A stretch of 64,000 bases of DNA from Escherichia coli (GCF_003334305.1 NZ_QOWS01000001.1), one strand, 5' to 3'. Numbered from the stretch's first letter, positions 6,889-25,851 are shown. The notes: generated from the letters alone by a model not told the origin. Program-made: numbers and translations.

Positions 6889-7028
6889 TCTGCATCCCTG
6901 TAATTTTATCCAGTTGAATGCAGATGCTACCAGTATTTATGCGGGTTAGAGAGAGACAAAATCGCAAGAAAACAACTTTAGGAATTTATAAAGAAAAGGC
7001 GCTGTCGATGCAGCGCCTTAAAGGGGGA

Positions 7029-9062
7029 TTATTTCACCTGATGGCCTGGTTTAGCACCAGCATCCGGGCTTAACAGGAAGATATCTTTCCCGCCAGGACC
7101 AGCAGCCATTACCATGCCTTCGGAGATACCAAAGCGCATTTTACGCGGTGCCAGGTTGGCCACCATAATGGTGTGACGCCCGATCAGTGCCTGCGGATCC
7201 GGGTAGGCAGAACGAATACCGGAGAAGACATTGCGTTTTTCACCGCCGAGATCCAGTGTCAGGCGCAGCAGTTTGTCAGAACCTTCAACAAACTCTGCGT
7301 TTTCGATCAGCGCCACGCGCAGGTCAACTTTTGCGAAGTCGTCAAAGGTGATGGTTTCCTGAATCGGATCATCTGCCAGTGGGCCAGTAACTGGCGCGGC
7401 AGCTGCTTTCACTTCTTCTTTAGACGCTTCCACCAGTGCTTCAACCTGCTTCATATCGATGCGGTTATACAGCGCTTTGAACGGATTCACTTTGTGGCCC
7501 AGCAGCGGTTGCTGGATACCATCCCAGGTCAGTTCTGTATTGAGGAATGCTTCTGCGCGCTCGGTCAGTTTCGGCAGTACCGGCTTCAGGTAAGTCATCA
7601 GCACGCGGAACAGGTTTATGCCCATTGAGCAAATTGCCTGCAGGTCGGCATCGCGGCCTTCCTGTTTTGCCACCACCCACGGAGCCTGCTCGTCGACATA
7701 GCGGTTAGCCAGATCAGCCAGCGCCATGATTTCGCGCACTGCTTTACCAAATTCGCGGCTTTCCCACGCTTCACCAATCACTTCAGCGGCATCAGTGAAG
7801 GTTTTGTACAACTGCGGGTCAGCCAATTCGCTTGCCAGCACGCCGTCAAAACGCTTGTTGATAAAGCCCGCATTACGAGAGGCCAGGTTAACCACTTTGT
7901 TCACGATATCGGCATTCACACGCTGAACGAAATCCTCCAGGTTGAGATCGATATCATCAATGCGCGAAGAGAGTTTCGCAGTGTAGTAGTAACGCAGGCT
8001 GTCAGCGTCAAAATGATTCAGCCAGGTGCTGGCTTTAATAAAGGTGCCGCGAGACTTGGACATCTTTGCGCCGTTCACCGTCACATAGCCATGAACAAAC
8101 AGGTTGGTCGGCTTGCGGAAGTTGCTGCCTTCCAGCATGGCAGGCCAGAACAGGCTGTGGAAGTAAACAATATCTTTACCGATGAAGTGGTACAGCTCGG
8201 CGGTGGAGTCTTTCTTCCAGTATTCATCGAAGCTTACGCTGTCGCCGCGCTTGTCGCACAGATTCTTGAAAGAACCCATGTAGCCAATCGGTGCGTCCAG
8301 CCAGACGTAGAAATATTTGCCCGGCGCGTTCGGAATTTCAAAACCAAAGTATGGCGCGTCGCGGGAGATATCCCACTGTTGCAGGCCGGATTCAAACCAC
8401 TCCTGCATTTTATTTGCCACCTGCTCCTGCAACGCACCGCTGCGGGTCCATGCCTGCAACATTTCGCTGAAAGAGGGCAGATCAAAGAAGAAGTGTTCAG
8501 AATCACGCATTACCGGCGTAGCGCCAGAAACCACCGATTTCGGCTCGATCAATTCAGTCGGGCTGTAGGTCGCGCCGCAGACTTCGCAGTTATCGCCGTA
8601 TTGATCCGGGGATTTACATTTCGGGCAGGTGCCTTTCACAAAACGGTCCGGCAGGAACATGCCTTTTTCCGGATCGTACAGCTGAGAGATGGTGCGGTTT
8701 TTAATAAAACCGTTCTCTTTCAGGCGAGAGTAGATAAGTTCTGACAACTGGCGGTTCTCTTCGCTGTGCGTCGAGTGATAGTTGTCATAGCTGATGTTAA
8801 AGCCTGCGAAATCAGTCTGATGCTCCTGACTCATTTCGCCAATCATCTGCTCCGGGGTGATACCAAGCTGCTGAGCTTTCAGCATGATCGGTGTACCGTG
8901 GGCATCGTCGGCGCAGATGAAGTTGACCTCGTGGCCGCGCATTCGCTGGTAACGGACCCAGACATCAGCCTGGATGTGCTCCAGCATATGGCCGAGGTGG
9001 ATTGAGCCGTTAGCGTACGGCAGTGCGCACGTCACCAGAATTTTCTTCGCGACTTGAGTCAT
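7029..9062 (-). CDS. metG: Methionyl-tRNA synthetase
   Basis: Translation [29 protein letters not shown] (HIGH-type motif), KMSKS present ([10 protein letters not shown]); 677 aa from the internal Met of the 680-aa ORF. Confidence 0.95.
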
Positions 9063-9193
9063 AGTAGGCATTACTTCTTAATAGTGAAAAGGGGTTAGAT
9101 AGTACCAAATGGGAAAATGTTAAGTAAGTACTTCTCTATATTCTTCAGGTAAACTATCAGCTGATGGTTTATCTATACAAAAAAGGAGTCGGG

Positions 9194-10303
9194 ATGAACG
9201 AACAATCCCAGGCCAAATCACCAGAAGCCTTGCGCGCAATGGTCGCCGGGACACTGGCCAATTTTCAGCACCCAACCCTGAAGCATAACCTCACCACGCT
9301 GAAAGCGTTGCACCATGTCGCCTGGATGGACGACACGTTGCATGTGGAACTGGTTATGCCATTCGTCTGGCATAGCGCGTTTGAAGAGTTAAAAGAGCAA
9401 TGTAGCGCCGAACTGCTGCGTATCACCGGGGCGAAAGCTATCGACTGGAAACTGTCGCACAATATCGCCACCTTAAAACGCGTGAAGAATCAGCCGGGTA
9501 TTAATGGTGTGAAGAACATCATTGCGGTCAGCTCCGGTAAAGGCGGCGTGGGTAAATCCTCCACGGCGGTAAACCTGGCGCTGGCACTGGCGGCGGAAGG
9601 GGCGAAAGTCGGCATTCTGGACGCCGATATCTACGGCCCATCAATTCCCACCATGCTGGGCGCAGAAAATCAGCGTCCAACGTCGCCGGACGGTACCCAC
9701 ATGGCACCGATTATGTCTCATGGCCTGGCAACCAATTCAATTGGTTATCTGGTCACTGACGACAATGCGATGGTGTGGCGTGGACCGATGGCGAGCAAGG
9801 CGTTAATGCAGATGTTGCAGGAAACCTTGTGGCCGGATCTCGACTATCTGGTGCTTGATATGCCGCCAGGCACCGGTGACATTCAATTGACGCTGGCGCA
9901 AAACATTCCAGTAACTGGTGCAGTCGTGGTCACCACCCCGCAGGACATCGCGTTGATCGATGCGAAAAAAGGCATTGTGATGTTCGAGAAAGTCGAGGTT
10001 CCGGTGCTTGGTATTGTCGAGAACATGAGTGTGCATATTTGCAGTAACTGTGGTCACCATGAACCGATTTTCGGTACCGGTGGTGCTGAGAAACTGGCTG
10101 AAAAATACCACACACAGCTGCTGGGGCAGATGCCGTTACACATCTCCTTACGTGAGGATCTCGATAAAGGCACGCCAACGGTTATCAGCCGTCCGGAGAG
10201 CGAATTTACCGCTATCTACCGCCAGTTGGCTGACCGCGTTGCAGCTCAGCTCTACTGGCAGGGTGAAGTCATTCCAGGCGAGATTTCCTTCCGCGCGGTC
10301 TAA
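9194..10303 (+). CDS. mrp: Fe-S cluster carrier ATPase Mrp/ApbC
   Basis: P-loop GKGGVGKSS; start MNEQSQAKSPE preceded by AAAGGAG; divergent from metG. Confidence 0.9.
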   Translation: MNEQSQAKSPEALRAMVAGTLANFQHPTLKHNLTTLKALHHVAWMDDTLHVELVMPFVWHSAFEELKEQCSAELLRITGAKAIDWKLSHNIATLKRVKNQPGINGVKNIIAVSSGKGGVGKSSTAVNLALALAAEGAKVGILDADIYGPSIPTMLGAENQRPTSPDGTHMAPIMSHGLATNSIGYLVTDDNAMVWRGPMASKALMQMLQETLWPDLDYLVLDMPPGTGDIQLTLAQNIPVTGAVVVTTPQDIALIDAKKGIVMFEKVEVPVLGIVENMSVHICSNCGHHEPIFGTGGAEKLAEKYHTQLLGQMPLHISLREDLDKGTPTVISRPESEFTAIYRQLADRVAAQLYWQGEVIPGEISFRAV

Positions 10304-11139: not shown

Positions 11140-11682
11140 ATGAAACGTTCAATTATTGCTGCCGCTGTCTTTTCTTCTTTTTTTATGAGCGCTGGAGTAT
11201 TTGCTGCAGACGTTGATACCGGAACATTAACTATTAAGGGGAATATTGCAGAATCTCCGTGTAAATTCGAAGCGGGTGGTGATTCAGTAAGTATTAATAT
11301 GCCGACTGTACCAACCACTGTCTTTGAAAGTAAAGCTAAATATTCTACCTATGATGATGCAGTCGGTGTAACCAGCAGCATGTTAAAAATTAGCTGCCCG
11401 AAAGAAGTTGCTGGTGTAAAACTCTCGTTGATTACCAACGATAAAATAACCGGTAACGATAAGGCGATAGCCAGTAGCAACGATACCGTGGGTTACTATC
11501 TCTATTTAGGTGATAACAGCGATGTCCTGGATGTTTCTGCACCTTTTAACATTGAGAGTTATAAAACAGCGGAAGGTCAATATGCTATTCCGTTTAAAGC
11601 AAAATACCTGAAACTGACAGATAACTCAGTGCAATCAGGTGATGTGTTATCTTCTCTGGTTATGCGTGTGGCGCAGGATTAA
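11140..11682 (+). CDS. yehD: Fimbrial major subunit (chaperone-usher pathway)
   Basis: 180 aa, signal peptide MKRSIIAAAVFSSFFMSAGVFA, fimbrial-subunit-like composition; first gene of a subunit-chaperone-usher-adhesin cluster. Confidence 0.8.
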   Translation: MKRSIIAAAVFSSFFMSAGVFAADVDTGTLTIKGNIAESPCKFEAGGDSVSINMPTVPTTVFESKAKYSTYDDAVGVTSSMLKISCPKEVAGVKLSLITNDKITGNDKAIASSNDTVGYYLYLGDNSDVLDVSAPFNIESYKTAEGQYAIPFKAKYLKLTDNSVQSGDVLSSLVMRVAQD

Positions 11683-17927: not shown

Positions 17928-18061
17928 CAACCAAACGACTCGGGGTGCCCTTCTGCGTGAAGGCTGAGAAATACCCGTATCACCTGATCTGGATAATGCC
18001 AGCGTAGGGAAGTCACGGACCACCAGGTCATTGCTTCTTCACGTTATGGCAGGAGCAAACT
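17928..18061 (+). promoter_or_regulatory. TPP (THI-box) riboswitch in the thiM 5' UTR
   Basis: Sequence CGGGGTGCCCTTCTGCGTGAAGGCTGAGAAATACCCGTATCACCTGATCTGGATAATGCCAGCGTAGGGAA matches the thiM aptamer; the downstream segment overlaps GGAGCAAACTATG (SD and start). Confidence 0.9.
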
Positions 18062-18850
18062 ATGCAAGTCGACCTGCTGAGTTCAGCGCAATCTGCGCAC
18101 GCGTTACACCTTTTTCACCAACATTCCCCTCTTGTGCACTGCATGACCAACGATGTGGTGCAAACCTTTACTGCCAATACCTTGCTGGCGCTCGGTGCAT
18201 CGCCAGCGATGGTTATCGAAACCGAAGAGGCCAGTCAGTTTGCGGCTATTGCCAGTGCGTTGCTGATTAACGTTGGCACGCTGACGCAGCTACGCGCACA
18301 GTCGATGTGTGCCGCCGTTGAGCAAGCAAAAAGCTCTCAAACACCCTGGACGCTTGATCCAGTAGCGGTTGGTGCACTCGATTATCGCCGCCGTTTTTGT
18401 CTGGAACTTCTGTCTCATAAGCCAACCGCCATACGTGGTAATGCTTCGGAAATCATGGCATTAGCTGGCATTGCTAATGGTGGACGGGGAGTGGATACCA
18501 CTGACGCCGCAGCTAACGCGATACCCGCTGCACAAACACTGGCACGGGAAACTGGCGCAATCGTCGTGGTCACTGGCGAGATGGATTATGTTACCGATGG
18601 ACATCGTATCATTGGTATTCACGGTGGCGATCCGTTAATGACCAAAGTGGTAGGAACTGGCTGTGCATTATCGGCGGTTGTCGCTGCCTGCTGTGCGTTA
18701 CCAGGCGATATGCTGGAAAATGTCGCATCTGCCTGTCACTGGATGAAACAAGCCGGAGAGCGCGCAGTCGCCAGAAGCGAGGGGCCAGGCAGTTTTGTTC
18801 CACATTTCCTTGATGCGCTCTGGCAATTGACGCAGGAGGTGCAGGCATGA
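18062..18850 (+). CDS. thiM: Hydroxyethylthiazole kinase
   Basis: 262 aa, [34 protein letters not shown]; directly follows the riboswitch. Confidence 0.92.
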
Positions 18851-19647
18851 AACGAATTAACGCTCTGACGATTGCCGGTACTGATCCCAGTGGTGGTGCG
18901 GGGATTCAGGCCGATCTTAAAACCTTCTCGGCACTTGGCGCTTATGGTTGCTCAGTTATTACTGCACTGGTGGCGCAAAATACCCGTGGCGTACAGTCGG
19001 TGTATCGCATTGAGCCTGATTTTGTCGCCGCCCAGCTCGATTCGGTGTTCAGCGATGTGCGAATCGACACCACTAAAATCGGTATGTTGGCGGAAACCGA
19101 TATTGTTGAAGCGGTGGCAGAACGGTTGCAACGTTATCAGATCCAAAACGTGGTACTCGACACCGTTATGCTGGCAAAAAGCGGCGACCCGCTGCTTTCA
19201 CCTTCGGCGGTTGCTACACTGCGCAGTCGATTATTGCCACAGGTTTCATTAATAACGCCAAACTTGCCCGAAGCTGCCGCCTTGCTCGACGCGCCACACG
19301 CGCGCACCGAACAGGAAATGCTGGAACAAGGGCGATCGCTGTTGGCGATGGGCTGTGGCGCAGTGCTAATGAAAGGTGGTCATCTGGATGATGAGCAAAG
19401 CCCGGACTGGCTGTTTACCCGCGAGGGTGAACAACGGTTTACCGCACCGCGCATTATGACCAAAAACACCCACGGCACTGGTTGTACGCTCTCTGCGGCG
19501 TTGGCTGCACTACGCCCGCGCCATACAAACTGGGCTGACACCGTACAGGAGGCAAAAAGCTGGCTTTCATCAGCATTAGCCCAGGCCGACACGCTGGAAG
19601 TTGGTCACGGTATTGGTCCGGTTCACCACTTCCACGCCTGGTGGTGA
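18847..19647 (+). CDS. thiD: Hydroxymethylpyrimidine / phosphomethylpyrimidine kinase
   Basis: 266 aa, [34 protein letters not shown]; 4-bp overlap with thiM. Confidence 0.92.
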
Positions 19648-19702
19648 GCACCGTACTATAGCTGCTTTGGTTATTGTCAGCCTTTGGCACTGACATTCAG
19701 GG

Positions 19703-20530
19703 ATGAAACCAATGCAGCTAAGAATTACCAGTCGAAAAAAACTCACCTCTCTATTATGCGCTCTTGGGCTAATTTCCATCGTTGCAATTTATCCGCGTCA
19801 GACGGTGAATTTTTTCTATTCGACAGCAGTTCAGATTACAGACTACATCCATTTCTACGGTTATCGCCCGGTTAAATCTTTCGCTATTCGCATTCCTGCC
19901 AGTTACACCATTCACGGAATAGATGTTTCTCGCTGGCAGGAGCGGATCGACTGGCAGCGGGTGGCAAAAATGCGCGACAACGGTATCCGCTTACAGTTTG
20001 CTTTTATTAAGGCGACGGAAGGCGAAAAGCTGGTGGACCCGTATTTTTCGCGTAACTGGCAACTAAGCCGCGAAAATGGCCTGCTGCGCGGGGCGTATCA
20101 TTATTTCTCCCCGTCGGTAGCAGCGCCGGTTCAGGCACGATTATTTCTGCAAACGGTGGATTTCTCACAAGGCGATTTCCCTGCGGTACTGGACGTAGAA
20201 GAACGGGGAAAATTATCGGCAAAAGAATTACGCAAACGAGTAAGTCAGTGGCTAAAAATGGTCGAAAAAAGTACGGGAAAAAAGCCGATTATTTACTCAG
20301 GAGCCGTTTTTTATCACACCAATCTGGCGGGCTATTTCAATGAATATCCGTGGTGGGTGGCTCACTATTATCAACGTCGTCCGGACAATGACGGCATGGC
20401 CTGGCGCTTCTGGCAGCATTCCGACCGTGGACAGGTAGATGGCATCAATGGTCCGGTGGATTTTAATGTATTTCATGGCACGGTGGAGGAGTTGCAGGCA
20501 TTCGTTGATGGGATTAAAGAAACGCCTTAA
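19703..20530 (+). CDS. yegX: Glycoside hydrolase family 25 (lysozyme-like) protein
   Basis: 275-aa ORF (possible start at 19712); GH25-like sequence HGIDVSRWQERIDWQRV. Confidence 0.8.
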   Translation: MKPMQLRITSRKKLTSLLCALGLISIVAIYPRQTVNFFYSTAVQITDYIHFYGYRPVKSFAIRIPASYTIHGIDVSRWQERIDWQRVAKMRDNGIRLQFAFIKATEGEKLVDPYFSRNWQLSRENGLLRGAYHYFSPSVAAPVQARLFLQTVDFSQGDFPAVLDVEERGKLSAKELRKRVSQWLKMVEKSTGKKPIIYSGAVFYHTNLAGYFNEYPWWVAHYYQRRPDNDGMAWRFWQHSDRGQVDGINGPVDFNVFHGTVEELQAFVDGIKETP

Positions 20531-20581
20531 ATAAGAAGCAGTGATATACTCCCACCAGACTCCCCGGCAGGAAAAAGACAA

Positions 20582-21328
20582 ATGGAACAAGCGCATACCC
20601 AGCTGATTGCCCAACTGAACGAGCGTATTTTAGCGGCGGATAACACGCCGCTTTATATTAAGTTTGCCGAAACGGTAAAAAATGCCGTGCGCAGCGGGGT
20701 GCTGGAGCATGGCAATATTTTGCCCGGTGAGCGTGATTTAAGTCAGTTAACCGGCGTTTCGCGCATTACGGTGCGCAAGGCGATGCAGGCGCTGGAAGAA
20801 GAGGGTGTGGTGACGCGTTCGCGCGGTTACGGCACGCAGATCAACAACATCTTCGAATACTCGTTGAAAGAAGCGCGAGGTTTTTCTCAGCAGGTGGTAT
20901 TGCGCGGGAAAAAGCCCGATACGCTATGGGTTAACAAGCGTGTCGTGAAATGTCCCGAAGAAGTCGCGCAGCAGCTGGCGGTCGAAGCAGGAAGTGATGT
21001 CTTTTTGCTTAAGCGTATTCGCTATGTCGATGAAGAAGCGGTATCGATTGAGGAATCGTGGGTTCCGGCGCATTTAATTCATGATGTTGATGCCATCGGG
21101 ATTTCACTTTATGACTATTTCCGCAGCCAGCACATTTACCCACAACGTACGCGTTCCCGCGTTAGCGCCCGGATGCCGGATGCCGAGTTTCAGTCACATA
21201 TTCAGTTAGATAGCAAAATACCGGTGCTGGTGATCAAGCAAGTGGCGCTTGACCAACAGCAACGGCCTATTGAGTACAGCATTAGCCACTGTCGCAGCGA
21301 TCTATACGTTTTTGTGTGCGAGGAGTAG
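20582..21328 (+). CDS. yegW: GntR-family transcriptional regulator
   Basis: 248 aa; N-terminal HTH LPGERDLSQLTGVSRITVRKAMQALEEEGVV typical of GntR/HutC. Confidence 0.85.
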   Translation: MEQAHTQLIAQLNERILAADNTPLYIKFAETVKNAVRSGVLEHGNILPGERDLSQLTGVSRITVRKAMQALEEEGVVTRSRGYGTQINNIFEYSLKEARGFSQQVVLRGKKPDTLWVNKRVVKCPEEVAQQLAVEAGSDVFLLKRIRYVDEEAVSIEESWVPAHLIHDVDAIGISLYDYFRSQHIYPQRTRSRVSARMPDAEFQSHIQLDSKIPVLVIKQVALDQQQRPIEYSISHCRSDLYVFVCEE

Positions 21329-22267
21329 TTCCTCGCGCGTTGGCGCACAATCACCGCCCCGATGCCCGACAACCCACGACGCCACTGCATTGCCCAGTAA
21401 TACGGCATCCGCCAGTGGCAGACCAGAGGCCAGCCCGGCAAGTACGCCACCTGCATGACTGTCGCCCGCCCCAATGGTGTCTACAACTTGCGTTGGAAAT
21501 GCCGGAATGCAGCCAGAAGCGTCGTTGCTGAAATACCATGCACCCTCTTTATCGAGACGAACGATCAACGGCGCGGCAAATTTCTCCTGCCATTGCTTGC
21601 CAAGTGTTGTTATCTCTGCGGATAAAGCAAAACGTTCGGCGGCAATCTCAGCCTCTTGACGATTGAGTGATACTAAAGGTCGACAGGCCATGATCCGCGC
21701 CAGTAATGCGTCCGGGATATCGCCGATACGTGGGCCAAAATCGATAAACGGCGTCACGTCTTGCAGCTTTTCCAGCCATTCCACTAACAATTCGCCGCAG
21801 GGCGAGGCCAGTTGATAACCGGAAAAATAGAGCAGGCTGCCAGGCGCAACGGTTAATCGCGCCAGCCACTGGCGATTCCACTGATTTTCCACACCGCTGA
21901 ATGACATAAAAGTGCGTTCGCCATCCGGCTCAACCAGCGCCAGACACCAGCCGTTATCGCCTTCGGCGTTATCGATCAGGCTGATTAACCCCTCTTTCGC
22001 CATCCGGTTGCGAATAATCTCCGCCCACACGCCCTGACCGAGCGGCAAGGCATTACCCGCTTCGATGCCGAGGCGCTTTAACGCCACGGCAATATTCAGT
22101 GCGCAGCCGCCAACGTTAACGCTCTGCTGCTTCAGTTCGATATCGCACCCACGCCAGGGGAGGGCATAAGCGTCGGCGATCACATCAATGACCGCCGCGC
22201 CGACGACCATCACCGGCTGACGCGAGGTTAATTCAGGCAGCAGCGTGTGTAATCGAGCGCCGCTCAT
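21302..22267 (-). CDS. yegV: PfkB-family sugar/nucleoside kinase
   Basis: 321 aa; C-terminal DTIGAGDSHAGGVLAGL resembles the PfkB catalytic motif; 3' end overlaps yegW convergently by 27 bp. Confidence 0.85.
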   Translation of the reverse strand: MSGARLHTLLPELTSRQPVMVVGAAVIDVIADAYALPWRGCDIELKQQSVNVGGCALNIAVALKRLGIEAGNALPLGQGVWAEIIRNRMAKEGLISLIDNAEGDNGWCLALVEPDGERTFMSFSGVENQWNRQWLARLTVAPGSLLYFSGYQLASPCGELLVEWLEKLQDVTPFIDFGPRIGDIPDALLARIMACRPLVSLNRQEAEIAAERFALSAEITTLGKQWQEKFAAPLIVRLDKEGAWYFSNDASGCIPAFPTQVVDTIGAGDSHAGGVLAGLASGLPLADAVLLGNAVASWVVGHRGGDCAPTREELLLAHKNV

Positions 22268-23268
22268 ACCGCCTCCCGTTGTTGACGATATTTCGCCAGC
22301 GCTGTGGCATAGCGGTTGAAATCAAGCTGATTTACCGCATCCAGTTCCGCCTTTAATGCAGGATCGATAGCGTTAACGCCATGCAACGCGCCGCAAATCG
22401 CCGTCGCCATAGCGCCGATGGTGTCTGTGTCGCCGCCAAGGTTAGCGCACAGGACGGCGCAGCGATTCGGGTCGGTTTGTGCCAGTTCAACCAGCGCAAT
22501 GGCGCACGGAACGGACTCAATAGTGCTGGTACCTGCGCCAACGACCTGGTAAAGCTGTTCGCTGGCGGATTCGGTGCCGTCGGCATTGCGCACAATTTTC
22601 AGCGCAATCTCCAGACGTGCTGCCAGTGAGGCGCTGAAGGTAGTGATGCGTTTTTGCTGTGCATGTCGCGCAATTGAAGGCAGGGAATCAACAATCGCTG
22701 ACCAGCTTTCTCCGTCAATGGCACGAGAAATCACCCATGCGATGACTACCGCACCTGCAACTGCCAGATCGGATTTATGGGTCGGGCTCGACGCCAGCGC
22801 CACATCATCAATAAAGGAATCAACATCACGCGCCGGAAGCAAACAACCTAATGGCGAGACGCGCATCGCTGCGCCGTTGGTCACGCCGTTGTTTTCCAGT
22901 TCAGCAACGGGTTTACCGTCGCGAATGGCGTTAAGCGCAATCTTCGAGGTCGGACCTAGTACGTTTTTGTTAAAGGCGTCGAAACGCAGCGCCCAGTCGA
23001 GAATATTACGCCCAATCAGATCCGGATCGATCTTGCCTTCACGTTCCAGTAACGCATCCGCCAGACACAGCGCCATCGAGGTATCGTCGGTGAATTCGGC
23101 GCGGTTAAAATAACAGGCCGCGTTATTCTCCTTTGGTCCAGGAAGAAAACGGTCAATCCAGCCAAAGTGTGCTTTAACGCGGCTGCGTGGCCAAAGCTCG
23201 GAGGGCATCCCCATCGCATCCCCTAACGCCTGCCCATAAAGAGCACCGAGAATACGTTCTGTTTTCAT
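22264..23268 (-). CDS. yegU: ADP-ribosylglycohydrolase-family protein
   Basis: 334 aa; N-terminal GALYGQALGDAMGMPSE; 4-bp overlap with yegV. Confidence 0.85.
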   Translation of the reverse strand: MKTERILGALYGQALGDAMGMPSELWPRSRVKAHFGWIDRFLPGPKENNAACYFNRAEFTDDTSMALCLADALLEREGKIDPDLIGRNILDWALRFDAFNKNVLGPTSKIALNAIRDGKPVAELENNGVTNGAAMRVSPLGCLLPARDVDSFIDDVALASSPTHKSDLAVAGAVVIAWVISRAIDGESWSAIVDSLPSIARHAQQKRITTFSASLAARLEIALKIVRNADGTESASEQLYQVVGAGTSTIESVPCAIALVELAQTDPNRCAVLCANLGGDTDTIGAMATAICGALHGVNAIDPALKAELDAVNQLDFNRYATALAKYRQQREAV

Positions 23269-24542
23269 TTAACTTCCCCTTGTGTCAACGCAATATCGCG
23301 ATCATCGACCTTGATAGCCGTAATTTCGTTGTCGGATTCGCGGAAAAAAATCATGAACAGCACGGCGATAATGGCAATCATCACCGCGCCAAAAGTCCAC
23401 ATCCCGGACCAGTTGAAAGTCAGTCCGTTTACCGGTTCCTGATAAGCGAACATCTTTTCCATCATCACACCGCCAAGACGATAGCCGAGCAAACTGCCGA
23501 AGCCCTGGCAGCAGAGCGTGATCAGCCCCTGCGCGGCGGTACGCATATGCACGGGGGCTTTTTTATCGACATAGATGTAAGCGGTAACGTAGTAAAAATC
23601 GTAACTTACGCCGTGAAGCAAAATACCGAGGAACAGTAACGCGTAGGTGAAATATTCATCCGCACTACCGTAAATAAAGAAGCCATAGCGGATCGCAGCG
23701 GTGACCAGACCAAGCAATAATACCTTTTTGATACCAAAGCGTTTAGTGAAAAACGGTAATGCCAGCATAAAGAATATTTCAGAGAACTGGCCGAGCGTCA
23801 TCCAGCCGGTGGCATTTTTCATGCCGACTTCGGTCAGATAACCGTTGGCAAAGATGTAATAGAACGCCAGTGGCATCGCAAACAGGAATGAACAGAAGAA
23901 AAAGACGAGGAAGTTTTTATCGCGCAGCAGGATCAGCGCATCCAGGCCGAGCATGACTTTAATGTCCATTTTGCCGGTGCTTTTTGGCGGCGTGTCGGGC
24001 AGGAAAAACGCAAACACACCGAGCAGAGCAGAACTTCCGGCGGTAATCAGCAGCGGGATGTTAGTCGGTGAGATATCGGCATACCCCAGCATTTGCGGCA
24101 AGAAACCACATGCCAGACCAGAGGCAATCCAGCCGATAGTGCCCATCACACGAATGCGCGGGAAATCACGCTCCACATCCGGCACGTTGGCAAAAGCGAT
24201 ACTGTTAGTCAGCGCAATGGTCGGCATATAGGTTAGCGAGTAGGCCAGCAGTAACGGGAAGAACCCGGCAAAAGTGGTCTGTTGCGCAGCGAAATACATC
24301 AGCAGCGCGCCTGCGAACATCAATACCGCCAGCACTTTTTGCGCCGAGAAAAAGCGGTCAGTGATGGAGCCAACCAGAATTGGCGACAGGATCGCCGCAA
24401 TGGCTGTGCAGGCATACGACCAGCCAATTTCTCCGGCACTAAAACCGCTTTTACTTAACCACAACCACAATGGCACAAACCACGCGCCCCAGATAAACCA
24501 TTCAACAAACATCATGAACGACAGCTTTGCTGTTGTTTTCAT
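23265..24542 (-). CDS. yegT: MFS nucleoside-type transporter
   Basis: 425 aa, multiple hydrophobic segments; first gene of the yegTUV operon. Confidence 0.85.
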   Translation of the reverse strand: MKTTAKLSFMMFVEWFIWGAWFVPLWLWLSKSGFSAGEIGWSYACTAIAAILSPILVGSITDRFFSAQKVLAVLMFAGALLMYFAAQQTTFAGFFPLLLAYSLTYMPTIALTNSIAFANVPDVERDFPRIRVMGTIGWIASGLACGFLPQMLGYADISPTNIPLLITAGSSALLGVFAFFLPDTPPKSTGKMDIKVMLGLDALILLRDKNFLVFFFCSFLFAMPLAFYYIFANGYLTEVGMKNATGWMTLGQFSEIFFMLALPFFTKRFGIKKVLLLGLVTAAIRYGFFIYGSADEYFTYALLFLGILLHGVSYDFYYVTAYIYVDKKAPVHMRTAAQGLITLCCQGFGSLLGYRLGGVMMEKMFAYQEPVNGLTFNWSGMWTFGAVMIAIIAVLFMIFFRESDNEITAIKVDDRDIALTQGEVK

Positions 24543-24798
24543 CTTTTAATTCCTTCATGACAGGTAATGTAAGGTACGCGATGACAATACCACTTAATAA
24601 TACCTTTTAAATACCTTTGCGGTGAAAACTTGACCGCGCTAACATTTTTTCTGATGAATCGAGCCAACAGAAAACGCTGAAAAAACATCCAAAAGATGGA
24701 AAAACTCGCCCGTAACGACCAGGATTATGATTGCCCGCAAAAGGCGGGCCAGGACAATCCATAGCCGATATCCAATCGGAATTTACGGGAGCATAGTA

Positions 24799-25851
24799 AT
24801 GACAGATATTGCGCAGTTGCTTGGCAAAGACGCCGACAACCTTTTACAGCACCGTTGTATGACAATTCCTTCTGACCAGCTTTATCTCCCCGGACATGAC
24901 TACGTAGACCGCGTAATGATTGACAATAATCGCCCGCCAGCGGTGTTACGTAATATGCAGACGTTGTACAACACCGGGCGTCTGGCTGGCACAGGATATC
25001 TTTCTATTCTGCCGGTTGACCAGGGCGTTGAGCACTCTGCCGGAGCTTCATTTGCTGCTAACCCGCTCTACTTTGACCCGAAAAACATTGTTGAACTGGC
25101 GATCGAAGCGGGCTGTAACTGTGTGGCGTCAACTTACGGCGTGCTGGCGTCGGTATCGCGGCGTTATGCGCATCGCATTCCATTCCTCGTCAAACTTAAT
25201 CACAACGAGACGCTAAGTTACCCGAATACCTACGATCAAACGCTGTATGCCAGCGTGGAGCAGGCGTTCAACATGGGCGCGGTTGCGGTTGGTGCGACTA
25301 TCTATTTTGGCTCGGAAGAGTCACGTCGCCAGATTGAAGAAATTTCTGCGGCTTTTGAACGTGCGCACGAGCTGGGTATGGTGACAGTGCTGTGGGCCTA
25401 TTTGCGTAACTCCGCCTTTAAGAAAGATGGCGTTGATTACCATGTTTCCGCCGACCTGACCGGTCAGGCAAACCATCTGGCGGCAACCATCGGTGCAGAT
25501 ATCGTCAAACAAAAAATGGCGGAAAATAACGGCGGCTATAAAGCAATTAATTACGGTTATACCGACGATCGCGTGTACAGCAAGTTAACCAGCGAAAACC
25601 CGATTGATCTGGTGCGTTATCAGTTAGCTAACTGCTATATGGGGCGCGCAGGGCTGATTAACTCCGGCGGTGCTGCAGGCGGTGAAACTGACCTCAGTGA
25701 TGCAGTGCGTACTGCGGTTATCAACAAACGCGCTGGCGGAATGGGGCTGATTCTTGGACGTAAGGCGTTCAAGAAATCGATGGCTGACGGCGTGAAACTG
25801 ATTAATGCCGTGCAGGACGTTTATCTCGATAGCAAAATTACTATTGCCTGA
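24799..25851 (+). CDS. fbaB: Class I fructose-bisphosphate aldolase
   Basis: 350 aa from [18 protein letters not shown], preceded by GGGAG. Confidence 0.9.

Follow-up and report, generated by a model that had tools for sequence, protein, structure and literature searches.

Background

Several described systems resemble the subject of this report, the yegTUV operon of Escherichia coli and its convergent regulator gene yegW (ggaR), which we analysed in a stretch of 64,000 nucleotides (GCF_003334305.1 NZ_QOWS01000001.1; hereafter the window, with positions counted from its first letter). The operon lies on the minus strand and encodes a transporter (yegT, 23265-24542, 425 amino acids), a predicted ADP-ribosylglycohydrolase (ARH)-fold hydrolase (yegU, 22264-23268, 334 amino acids) and a PfkB-family kinase (yegV, 21302-22267, 321 amino acids); yegW (20582-21328, 248 amino acids) lies on the plus strand. 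All four sets of coordinates come from a mechanical list of open reading frames (ORFs).

In the STM4065-4067 operon of Salmonella, STM4066 is a PfkB kinase with demonstrated aminoimidazole riboside kinase activity and the third gene encodes a putative ADP-ribosylglycohydrolase (PMC3161100). This cluster combines a PfkB riboside kinase with an ARH gene, as yegUV does, but it is paralogous rather than orthologous; the STM4066 structures 1TYY and 1TZ3 match a model of YegV with a template modelling (TM) score of about 0.76 and 20% identity, a match that ribokinases equal or surpass. Dougherty and Downs are said to have described STM4065 in 2003 as a permease, and the GntR regulator STM4068 as controlling the STM4065-4067 operon. 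The psuT-psuG-psuK (yeiMNC) genes share, by annotation, the same three-part logic of nucleoside transporter, PfkB kinase and glycosidase. In the pseudouridine pathway PsuK acts first, and PsuG then cleaves the 5'-phosphate to ribose 5-phosphate and the base. PsuG, however, has a fold of another family and its substrate is a C-glycoside, PsuK is a distant paralogue of YegV, and no GntR repressor gene adjoins the psu genes.

In nicotinamide riboside salvage by PnuC and NadR, carrier and trapping kinase are arranged as in Clostridia, where homologues of YegU and YegV share an operon with a PnuC-family carrier. E. coli yegTUV differs in having an NHS symporter and a PfkB rather than a NadR-type kinase, and in it a glycohydrolase follows, so that the pathway would be degradative or aglycone-releasing, not cofactor-building. 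The rus loci of Bacteroidetes combine ribokinases and a transporter with variable ribose-releasing enzymes, ADP-ribosylglycohydrolases among them (bioRxiv 10.1101/574913). They differ from yegTUV in their SusC/D-type outer-membrane systems, another regulator, induction by ribose and a hydrolase-first order. ARH3, DraG, Tri1 and MJ1187, finally, have the all-helical ARH fold in common with YegU (TM 0.75-0.90), as well as conserved metal ligands that are acidic residues and threonines; ARH3, DraG and Tri1 reverse protein ADP-ribosylation or cleave poly(ADP-ribose), and their genes, unlike yegU, do not stand beside importers and kinases.

The locus itself is already known: it is annotated (yegT, yegU, yegV, yegW and fbaB in RefSeq), and its regulator and the structure of its transporter are published. 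YegW was renamed GgaR in 2024 as a single-target repressor of yegTUV, on the evidence of chromatin immunoprecipitation on microarrays (ChIP-chip), gel shifts and Northern blots (Saito et al. 2024, PMC10819704), and its K-12 RefSeq product name is now 'DNA-binding transcriptional regulator GgaR'. The only ChIP-chip sites were the spacer between fbaB and yegT and, more weakly, a fragment inside yegT (nucleotides 571-869); yegTUV was transcribed as a single 3.3-kb mRNA that was undetectable in the wild type and about 30-fold more abundant in the yegW mutant, fbaB expression was unaffected in that mutant, and the GgaR protein level was constant in the wild type (PMC10819704). The crystal structure of YegT followed (Xiao et al. 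2025, PMC11979927), while YegV still figured as an uncharacterised sugar kinase in a paper of 2025. What we add is a prediction of the GgaR operator, together with evidence from fusions of the PfkB and ARH enzymes and from the exchange of transporters beside them.

Results and discussion

A hydrolase and kinase pair with exchangeable carriers

We propose that yegTUV and ggaR form a repressor-gated module for the uptake and breakdown of a non-canonical riboside, a reading to which we give an even chance. The evidence that carries it comes from comparison of genomes. A search of 1.84 billion cluster representatives with YegU returned 6985 relatives, including 236 below 1e-30. Of the 150 best-scoring representatives, 12 were at least 560 residues long, and 11 of these are fusions of PfkB and ARH domains, four in the order ARH-PfkB and seven in the order PfkB-ARH; the twelfth is a tandem ARH protein. 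Gene neighbourhoods were compared in one genome per species, giving 79 loci, 68 of which were scored by ORF clustering. A YegV homologue is adjacent to the YegU homologue in 56 of these 68 loci, and a GntR/UTRA regulator in 49. The accompanying carrier, by contrast, changes: 34 loci have an NHS transporter (Enterobacterales, Vibrio, Gilliamella), 14 an NCS1 transporter (Aeromonas, Chromobacterium, Bacillales, Lactobacillales, Dialister, Sutterella) and 11 a PnuC-family carrier (Clostridia, Lachnospiraceae; TIGR01528 at 150 bits, PF04973), and one fusion gene lies between a GntR/UTRA gene and an ATP-binding cassette (ABC) importer. Riboside importers are known in each of the NHS, NCS1, PnuC and ABC families, and a PnuC-type carrier needs a partner kinase that phosphorylates the imported riboside. 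This swapping of carriers and fusion of enzymes, the strongest evidence we have, points at the level of sequence comparison to a ribose-containing small molecule that is imported and then converted in two steps.

The arrangement in E. coli is no product of chance: the locus is found in 5421 of 5426 complete E. coli genomes (matches to a 5.5-kb query around it over at least 80% of the query length), and the 27-nucleotide overlap between the ends of yegV and yegW recurs in 21 species loci. These 21 are all Enterobacteriaceae; the neighbours fbaB and thiDM are likewise confined to that family, and neither they nor the overlap are counted here as parts of the module.

Reduced and expanded forms of the gene set were also seen. 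In Edwardsiella and Serratia marcescens (loci L047, L049 and L050) the genes for a YegU homologue and a GntR/UTRA protein have neither kinase nor carrier beside them and are inserted, to judge from ORF translations, between phoPQ-like and purB-like genes. In locus L095 a second ARH gene (7511-8247) follows the ABC importer downstream of an ARH::PfkB fusion, and one cluster representative (P0165, 692 amino acids) is itself a tandem ARH-ARH protein. The trio of ARH, carrier and PfkB genes adjoins thiamine-salvage genes in two unrelated lineages, namely thiMD in Enterobacteriaceae (17931-21328 in the window) and a tenA gene with a thiamine pyrophosphate (TPP) riboswitch in L011/L012 (in L011, positions 11315-11405 and 7001-10261). 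The Salmonella paralogue kinase also feeds thiamine synthesis. Coincidence is possible, and we did not adopt a thiamine link for the module, since it would rest on adjacency.

The hydrolase, the kinase and the transporter

Family PF03747 covers the 99%-identical cluster of YegU (P0001) and all listed homologues. The motifs GDAMGMPxE, TDD and GGDTDT are conserved in all 20 diverse family members that we aligned, and within them D17, E24, T60, D61, D62, D280, D282 and T283 are invariant or at least 90% conserved. The metal-site residues align with YTDDT and GGDTDT of ARH3. An AlphaFold2 model of YegU (mean predicted local distance difference test score, pLDDT, of 96.8) has the ARH fold; its best match is the archaeal MJ1187 (TM 0.82/0.90), followed by ARH3 (about 0.77) and DraG (about 0.75). 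Judged by these motifs and this model, YegU is an ADP-ribosylglycohydrolase-fold, metal-dependent glycohydrolase and looks catalytically competent. Assignment as a DraG or Tri1 equivalog was rejected, for the scores fall far below the respective cut-offs (80.9 against 337.05 bits for TIGR02662, and 69.8 against 490 bits for NF041672). The fold search, which matched MJ1187, ARH3 and DraG, does not discriminate between substrates. One difference from ARH3 concerns the tyrosine of its SYGNGGAMR motif, which we take to be the residue that contacts adenine: in a pairwise alignment it falls on a valine in YegU (VTNGAAMR), the preceding serine lies in an insertion that YegU lacks, and the corresponding column of the 20-sequence alignment holds no aromatic residue. 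This is a weak hint, from the alignment, that the adenosine part of ADP-ribose may be recognised differently by YegU.

Orthologues of YegV match PF00294. Across 35 sequences G53, G54, N202, E205, G266, G268 and D269 do not vary, and conservation of A267 reaches at least 90%, which preserves the GG, NxxE and GAGD motifs; with these PfkB catalytic motifs in place the kinase looks active. Aligned to RbsK and PsuK, YegV keeps D16 and N46. Two RbsK residues that we presume to contact ribose are replaced across the YegV family, N14 by V, F or I and K43 by Cys, while E143 is variable, and a DNGW motif is conserved and specific to the family. YegV was therefore rejected as an RbsK equivalog, its scores also being far below the cut-offs (82.3 against 299.65 bits for ribokinase TIGR02152, and 60 against 341 bits for NF008353). 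No equivalog cut-off, in fact, was reached by either YegU or YegV. The AlphaFold2 model (pLDDT 95.3) has TM scores of 0.74-0.81 to ribokinases, and Foldseek matched it about equally to ribokinases, 2-keto-3-deoxygluconate (KDG) kinase, nucleoside kinases and aminoimidazole riboside kinase, so that the fold search does not separate sugar kinases from riboside kinases. A machine-learning prediction of a KdgK-like function was rejected as over-propagation in a 2025 paper, and the KDG kinase model scores very low on YegV. A 2026 paper on a Salmonella PfkB protein deals with another gene, STM3547.

YegT, the product of the first gene of the operon, is an NHS-family (NupG-like) proton symporter of the major facilitator superfamily (MFS), matching the nucleoside permease model TIGR00889 over residues 1-418 at 654.7 bits, above the curated cut-off of 446.1. 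All 425 of its residues are covered by the match to PDB entry 8ZOJ, 'putative nucleoside transporter YegT'; NupG structures match it at 3.8e-51. Isothermal titration calorimetry (ITC) detected no significant binding of uridine, adenosine, cytidine or guanosine by YegT, and the NupG residues F143, N228, Y318 and F322 are not conserved in it (PMC11979927).

The regulator and its predicted operator

Orthologues of YegW combine an N-terminal winged helix-turn-helix (HTH) domain of the GntR family (PF00392) with a C-terminal UTRA effector domain (PF07702). The full-length protein matches the PhnF, HutC and TreR models, all below their equivalog cut-offs, and its nearest solved relatives are YvoA/NagR (5.8e-22) and DasR. 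With these regulators of the HutC subfamily GgaR shares its architecture and its role as local repressor of a catabolic operon. Their effectors, however, are amino-sugar phosphates and their operators are palindromes, whereas the site that we predict for GgaR consists of direct GGTATT repeats 11 nucleotides apart, a layout that is presumably closer to the style of FarR/MngR.

The leader of yegT reads, on the sense strand, CAAAGGTATTTAAAAGGTATTATTAAGTGGTATTGTCAT, and contains three direct GGTATT repeats (minus strand, 24615-24610, 24604-24599 and 24591-24586, together 24586-24615) whose starts are spaced by 11 and 13 nucleotides. We predict these, from their repetition and conservation, to be the primary GgaR operator. 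In an alignment of E. coli, Salmonella, Klebsiella, Citrobacter and Kluyvera the repeats are invariant over the five genera, and 32 loci, belonging to Enterobacterales and Vibrio, have the 11-nucleotide pair 5' of yegT. A consensus scan places a sigma-70 promoter at 24597-24626 on the same strand (9 of 12 matches), with a predicted -35 element TTCACC at 24626-24621, which is poorly conserved between genera, and a predicted -10 element TATTAT at 24602-24597. The second repeat overlaps the predicted -10 element, and the third sits at the expected start of transcription. Where 0.02 occurrences of GGTATYN5GGTATY would be expected, the window holds exactly two, one at 24599-24615 and the other inside yegT at 23719-23735 (GGTATCAAAAAGGTATT, minus strand). 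By this match we predict the latter to be a secondary, weaker GgaR site.

Both sites coincide with DNA on which binding has been observed: the primary one lies inside the 190-bp probe bound by GgaR, and the secondary one inside the intragenic probe (ORF nucleotides 571-869, 23674-23972 in the window) that GgaR bound at higher protein concentration (PMC10819704). That study defined no binding motif, and the operator is a prediction of ours, namely that the GGTATT direct repeats constitute the GgaR operator with one copy over the -10 box and a second copy of the site in yegT. A palindromic operator of HutC type was considered and rejected for the yegT leader, where the symmetry of GGTA and TACC is only partial and it is the direct repeat that is conserved.

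In Clostridia and Bacillales, other palindromes lie 5' of the ARH gene. Differing palindromes are as expected if the regulator of each lineage co-evolved with its site. The candidates in Clostridia are TATAACTTATTATA-like and lie about 30-70 nucleotides 5' of the ARH gene (L059, L071, L074, L086); those upstream of ARH operons in Bacillales are ACTCATACGTATGAGT-like (L061, L063, L067). Control by a riboswitch was also rejected, as searches with Rfam models, made on the yegT leader and on the DNA 5' of the ARH operons at five other loci, gave no RNA element. The TPP riboswitches that were found belong to thiM (17931-18027) and to the neighbouring tenA in L011.

A proposed pathway and its alternatives

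Under our proposal YegT, whose family is established, would import a riboside by proton symport. YegV would phosphorylate the 5'-OH of the intact riboside and so trap it in the cell. YegU, with the two-metal site of the ARH fold, would then cleave the C1' glycosidic bond to yield ribose 5-phosphate and a free aglycone, as PsuK and PsuG do for pseudouridine. GgaR, reported to hold the operon about 30-fold repressed (PMC10819704), may do so by occluding the promoter at the GGTATT repeats over the -10 box and the likely transcription start, with a second site in yegT, and an ADP-sugar-like ligand would release it, as ADP-glucose does in vitro (PMC10819704). The preliminary description of the window had likewise suggested transport, hydrolysis and phosphorylation of a ribosylated substrate, naming ADP-ribose or a nucleoside derivative. 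Gene families and comparative genomics do point to such a pathway. Canonical nucleosides are disfavoured because YegT bound none of the four in ITC (PMC11979927), and ADP-ribose itself appears a poor fit to the three transporter families that accompany the YegU/YegV pair.

A number of points weigh against the proposal. To our knowledge, the substrates of those ARH enzymes that have been characterised are ADP-ribosyl conjugates and neither small ribosides nor riboside monophosphates. That genes lie together speaks for a functional link but does not reveal the chemistry, and the nearest sequence and fold relatives of YegV are ribokinases as much as riboside kinases. Whole-word searches of the literature for the gene names found no biochemical study of YegU or YegV, and searches for ARH with PfkB and nucleoside, or for ARH with PnuC, returned nothing. 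The sole effector found for GgaR, ADP-glucose, is a nucleotide sugar and neither a riboside nor a riboside phosphate, and the sole phenotypes are related to glycogen (PMC10819704, PMC6195507).

Those last points belong to the framing of the GgaR study itself, in which the products of yegTUV would act on or towards ADP-glucose, by import, formation or sparing, while GgaR senses ADP-glucose and sets the flow of glucose into glycogen. In its favour, the ggaR mutant accumulates 2-3 times as much glycogen and grows poorly on glucose minimal medium, 10-100 uM ADP-glucose frees GgaR from DNA in vitro while glucose and ADP do not, and more glucose raises yegTUV mRNA about 3-fold in a GgaR-dependent manner (PMC10819704); a screen of the Keio collection, moreover, placed the yegV mutant among the glycogen-deficient strains on ADP-glucose medium (PMC6195507). 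We nevertheless consider a glycogen module improbable. The glycogen increase was recorded on deletion of ggaR, the regulator gene (PMC10819704). In Clostridia, Bacillales and Lactobacillales the same enzyme pair has PnuC or NCS1 carriers beside it, an arrangement suggestive of a substrate that enters uncharged, as a riboside. Its chemistry, too, is hard to reconcile with the glycogen framing: among PfkB and ARH enzymes we know of no reaction by which ADP-glucose is made or spared, and ARH enzymes cleave ribosyl C1 bonds, of which only the bond to adenine would qualify in ADP-glucose. Because slow growth alone raises glycogen (PMC10819704, introduction), the phenotype is probably an indirect effect of derepression, and ADP-glucose may be a stand-in for the true ligand of GgaR. 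The preliminary description had held that a published, unrelated function would speak against its pathway; the published physiology is indeed tied to glycogen and ADP-glucose and not to nucleoside or ADP-ribose catabolism, but since the paper assigns no enzymatic function to YegT, YegU or YegV, it does not refute the riboside reading.

Closer to our own proposal is the order that the preliminary description gave, in which YegU would free ribose and aglycone and YegV would serve as a second ribokinase making ribose 5-phosphate. The best family and structure matches of YegV are ribokinases, ribokinases occur together with nucleoside hydrolases or ARH genes in the ribose loci of Bacteroidetes (bioRxiv 10.1101/574913), and the fusions and adjacency of YegU and YegV fit either order; we hold hydrolase-first scavenging to be less likely than not, yet a close rival to the kinase-first order. 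E. coli already possesses RbsK, and YegV reaches only 82 bits against a ribokinase cut-off of 300, with N14 and K43 of RbsK replaced in all family members. Of the two orders we mildly favour the one in which the kinase acts first: PnuC-type carriers rely on phosphorylation of their cargo, every characterised ARH substrate known to us carries a 5''-phosphate ester, and there are two precedents, in that PsuK acts before PsuG and STM4066 of the parallel Salmonella operon phosphorylates a riboside (PMC3161100). YegU might instead be a true ADP-ribosyl hydrolase that strips ADP-ribose from a protein or metabolite in the cell, or acts on O-acetyl-ADP-ribose, with YegT and YegV as linked salvage functions. 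Its ARH fold and complete metal site, ARH3 being among its closest solved relatives, and the ADP-sugar effector of GgaR, which would allow ADP-ribose as the real ligand, are in keeping with such a role. The conserved neighbourhood, however, contains no ADP-ribosyltransferase or sirtuin gene, a kinase and an importer are consistent partners of YegU, by coupling or by fusion, the valine at the position of the ARH3 tyrosine departs from ARH3, as does the lack of any aromatic residue there, and the scores against DraG and Tri1 are far below their cut-offs; we regard this role as very doubtful.

Returning to the non-canonical riboside, its ribose might be alpha-linked, since the characterised ARH enzymes are, as far as we know, specific for that linkage; cobamide lower ligands and ADP-ribosylated gut material are examples of where such an alpha-riboside might come from. 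A broader version of the proposal holds that YegU-type proteins are a widespread branch of ARH-fold small-molecule glycosidases rather than erasers of ADP-ribosylation, which together with a PfkB kinase would cleave the riboside 5'-phosphate formed from an imported non-canonical riboside, with GgaR as the sensor and ADP-glucose as a mimic of its ligand. We advance it tentatively, as a possibility that is more likely wrong than right.

Gene junctions and the convergent overlap

The structural observations of the preliminary description held up well. Both junctions within the operon, as it stated, are 4-bp overlaps that read ATGA on the minus strand, the stop of yegT with the start of yegU at 23265-23268 (GGGGAAGTTAAATGAAAACA) and the stop of yegU with the start of yegV at 22264-22267 (CGGGAGGCGGTATGAGCGGC); each is preceded by about 8 nucleotides by a purine-rich, Shine-Dalgarno-like GGGGAAG or GGGAGG, and the -4 junction of yegU and yegV recurs in 25 species loci. 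The families it named, a nucleoside-type MFS transporter, an ADP-ribosylglycohydrolase, a PfkB kinase and a GntR regulator, are borne out by the matches to TIGR00889, PF03747, PF00294 and the GntR and UTRA domains. That the three genes form one operon agrees with the single 3.3-kb mRNA, and that the convergent GntR gene regulates them agrees with the ChIP-chip, gel shift and Northern blot evidence and the 30-fold derepression (PMC10819704). The span that it gave, 22264-24542, contains yegU and yegT and leaves outside yegV and yegW, which it also described, and its view of the cluster as poorly characterised is outdated now that YegW is published and annotated as GgaR and the structure of YegT is solved. 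Nothing in the sequence of the locus is anomalous.

The ends of yegV and yegW converge with a 27-nucleotide overlap at 21302-21328, where strand does not apply, and the ORF coordinates here agree with those given earlier. ExcludonFinder lists yegV-yegW as an excludon candidate from RNA-seq (PMC12288877). The coding overlap is present, but the GgaR protein level is constant in the wild type (PMC10819704). No terminator-like site was predicted between the two genes on either strand. Because they converge and overlap with no predicted terminator between them, read-through from yegTUV could, speculatively, lower ggaR expression and so provide feedback.

Neighbouring features

A gene annotated in RefSeq as a putative glycosyl hydrolase, yegX (19703-20530, plus strand), stands between yegW and thiD only in Escherichia loci; in other Enterobacteriaceae yegW directly adjoins thiD, and yegX thus looks like a lineage-specific insertion. 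Beyond yegX and yegW, 5' of thiM/thiD, lies the TPP riboswitch (RF00059, 17931-18027, plus strand, 71.2 bits, E 7.9e-13) expected for the thiMD operon of E. coli. On the other side of the operon, a functional link to fbaB was considered and rejected: only in Enterobacteriaceae are fbaB and yegT divergently arranged, and GgaR has no effect on fbaB mRNA (PMC10819704), which leaves fbaB as a neighbour only. Its 5' leader (24709-24790, plus strand) folds with -30.9 kcal/mol (z -2.68) around a GCCCGC/GCGGGC core hairpin at 24733-24749; Salmonella, Citrobacter, Klebsiella and Kluyvera have the hairpin in the same place, with both arms altered. The mechanical fbaB ORF starts at 24727 and is longer than the RefSeq gene, which starts at 24799. 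Directly after the fbaB stop, a match to naRNA4/CssrE (RF02564, 25882-25952, plus strand, 56.1 bits against a gathering score of 59.5, E 4.9e-8) is probably an element of the repetitive extragenic palindromic (REP) type.

Implications

The operon is a remaining set of genes of unknown function in the best-studied bacterium, conserved in nearly all E. coli genomes, and its pair of ARH-fold hydrolase and PfkB kinase is spread over gut and host-associated bacteria, beside at least three kinds of riboside carrier. The identity of its substrate would explain why derepression shifts carbon into glycogen, would give a branch of the ADP-ribosylhydrolase family a metabolic, non-signalling role, and would name a nutrient for which gut bacteria compete. 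If the broader version of our proposal is true, yegTUV and its relatives represent a new nutrient-salvage pathway common to Enterobacterales, Vibrio, Lachnospiraceae, Bacillales and others.

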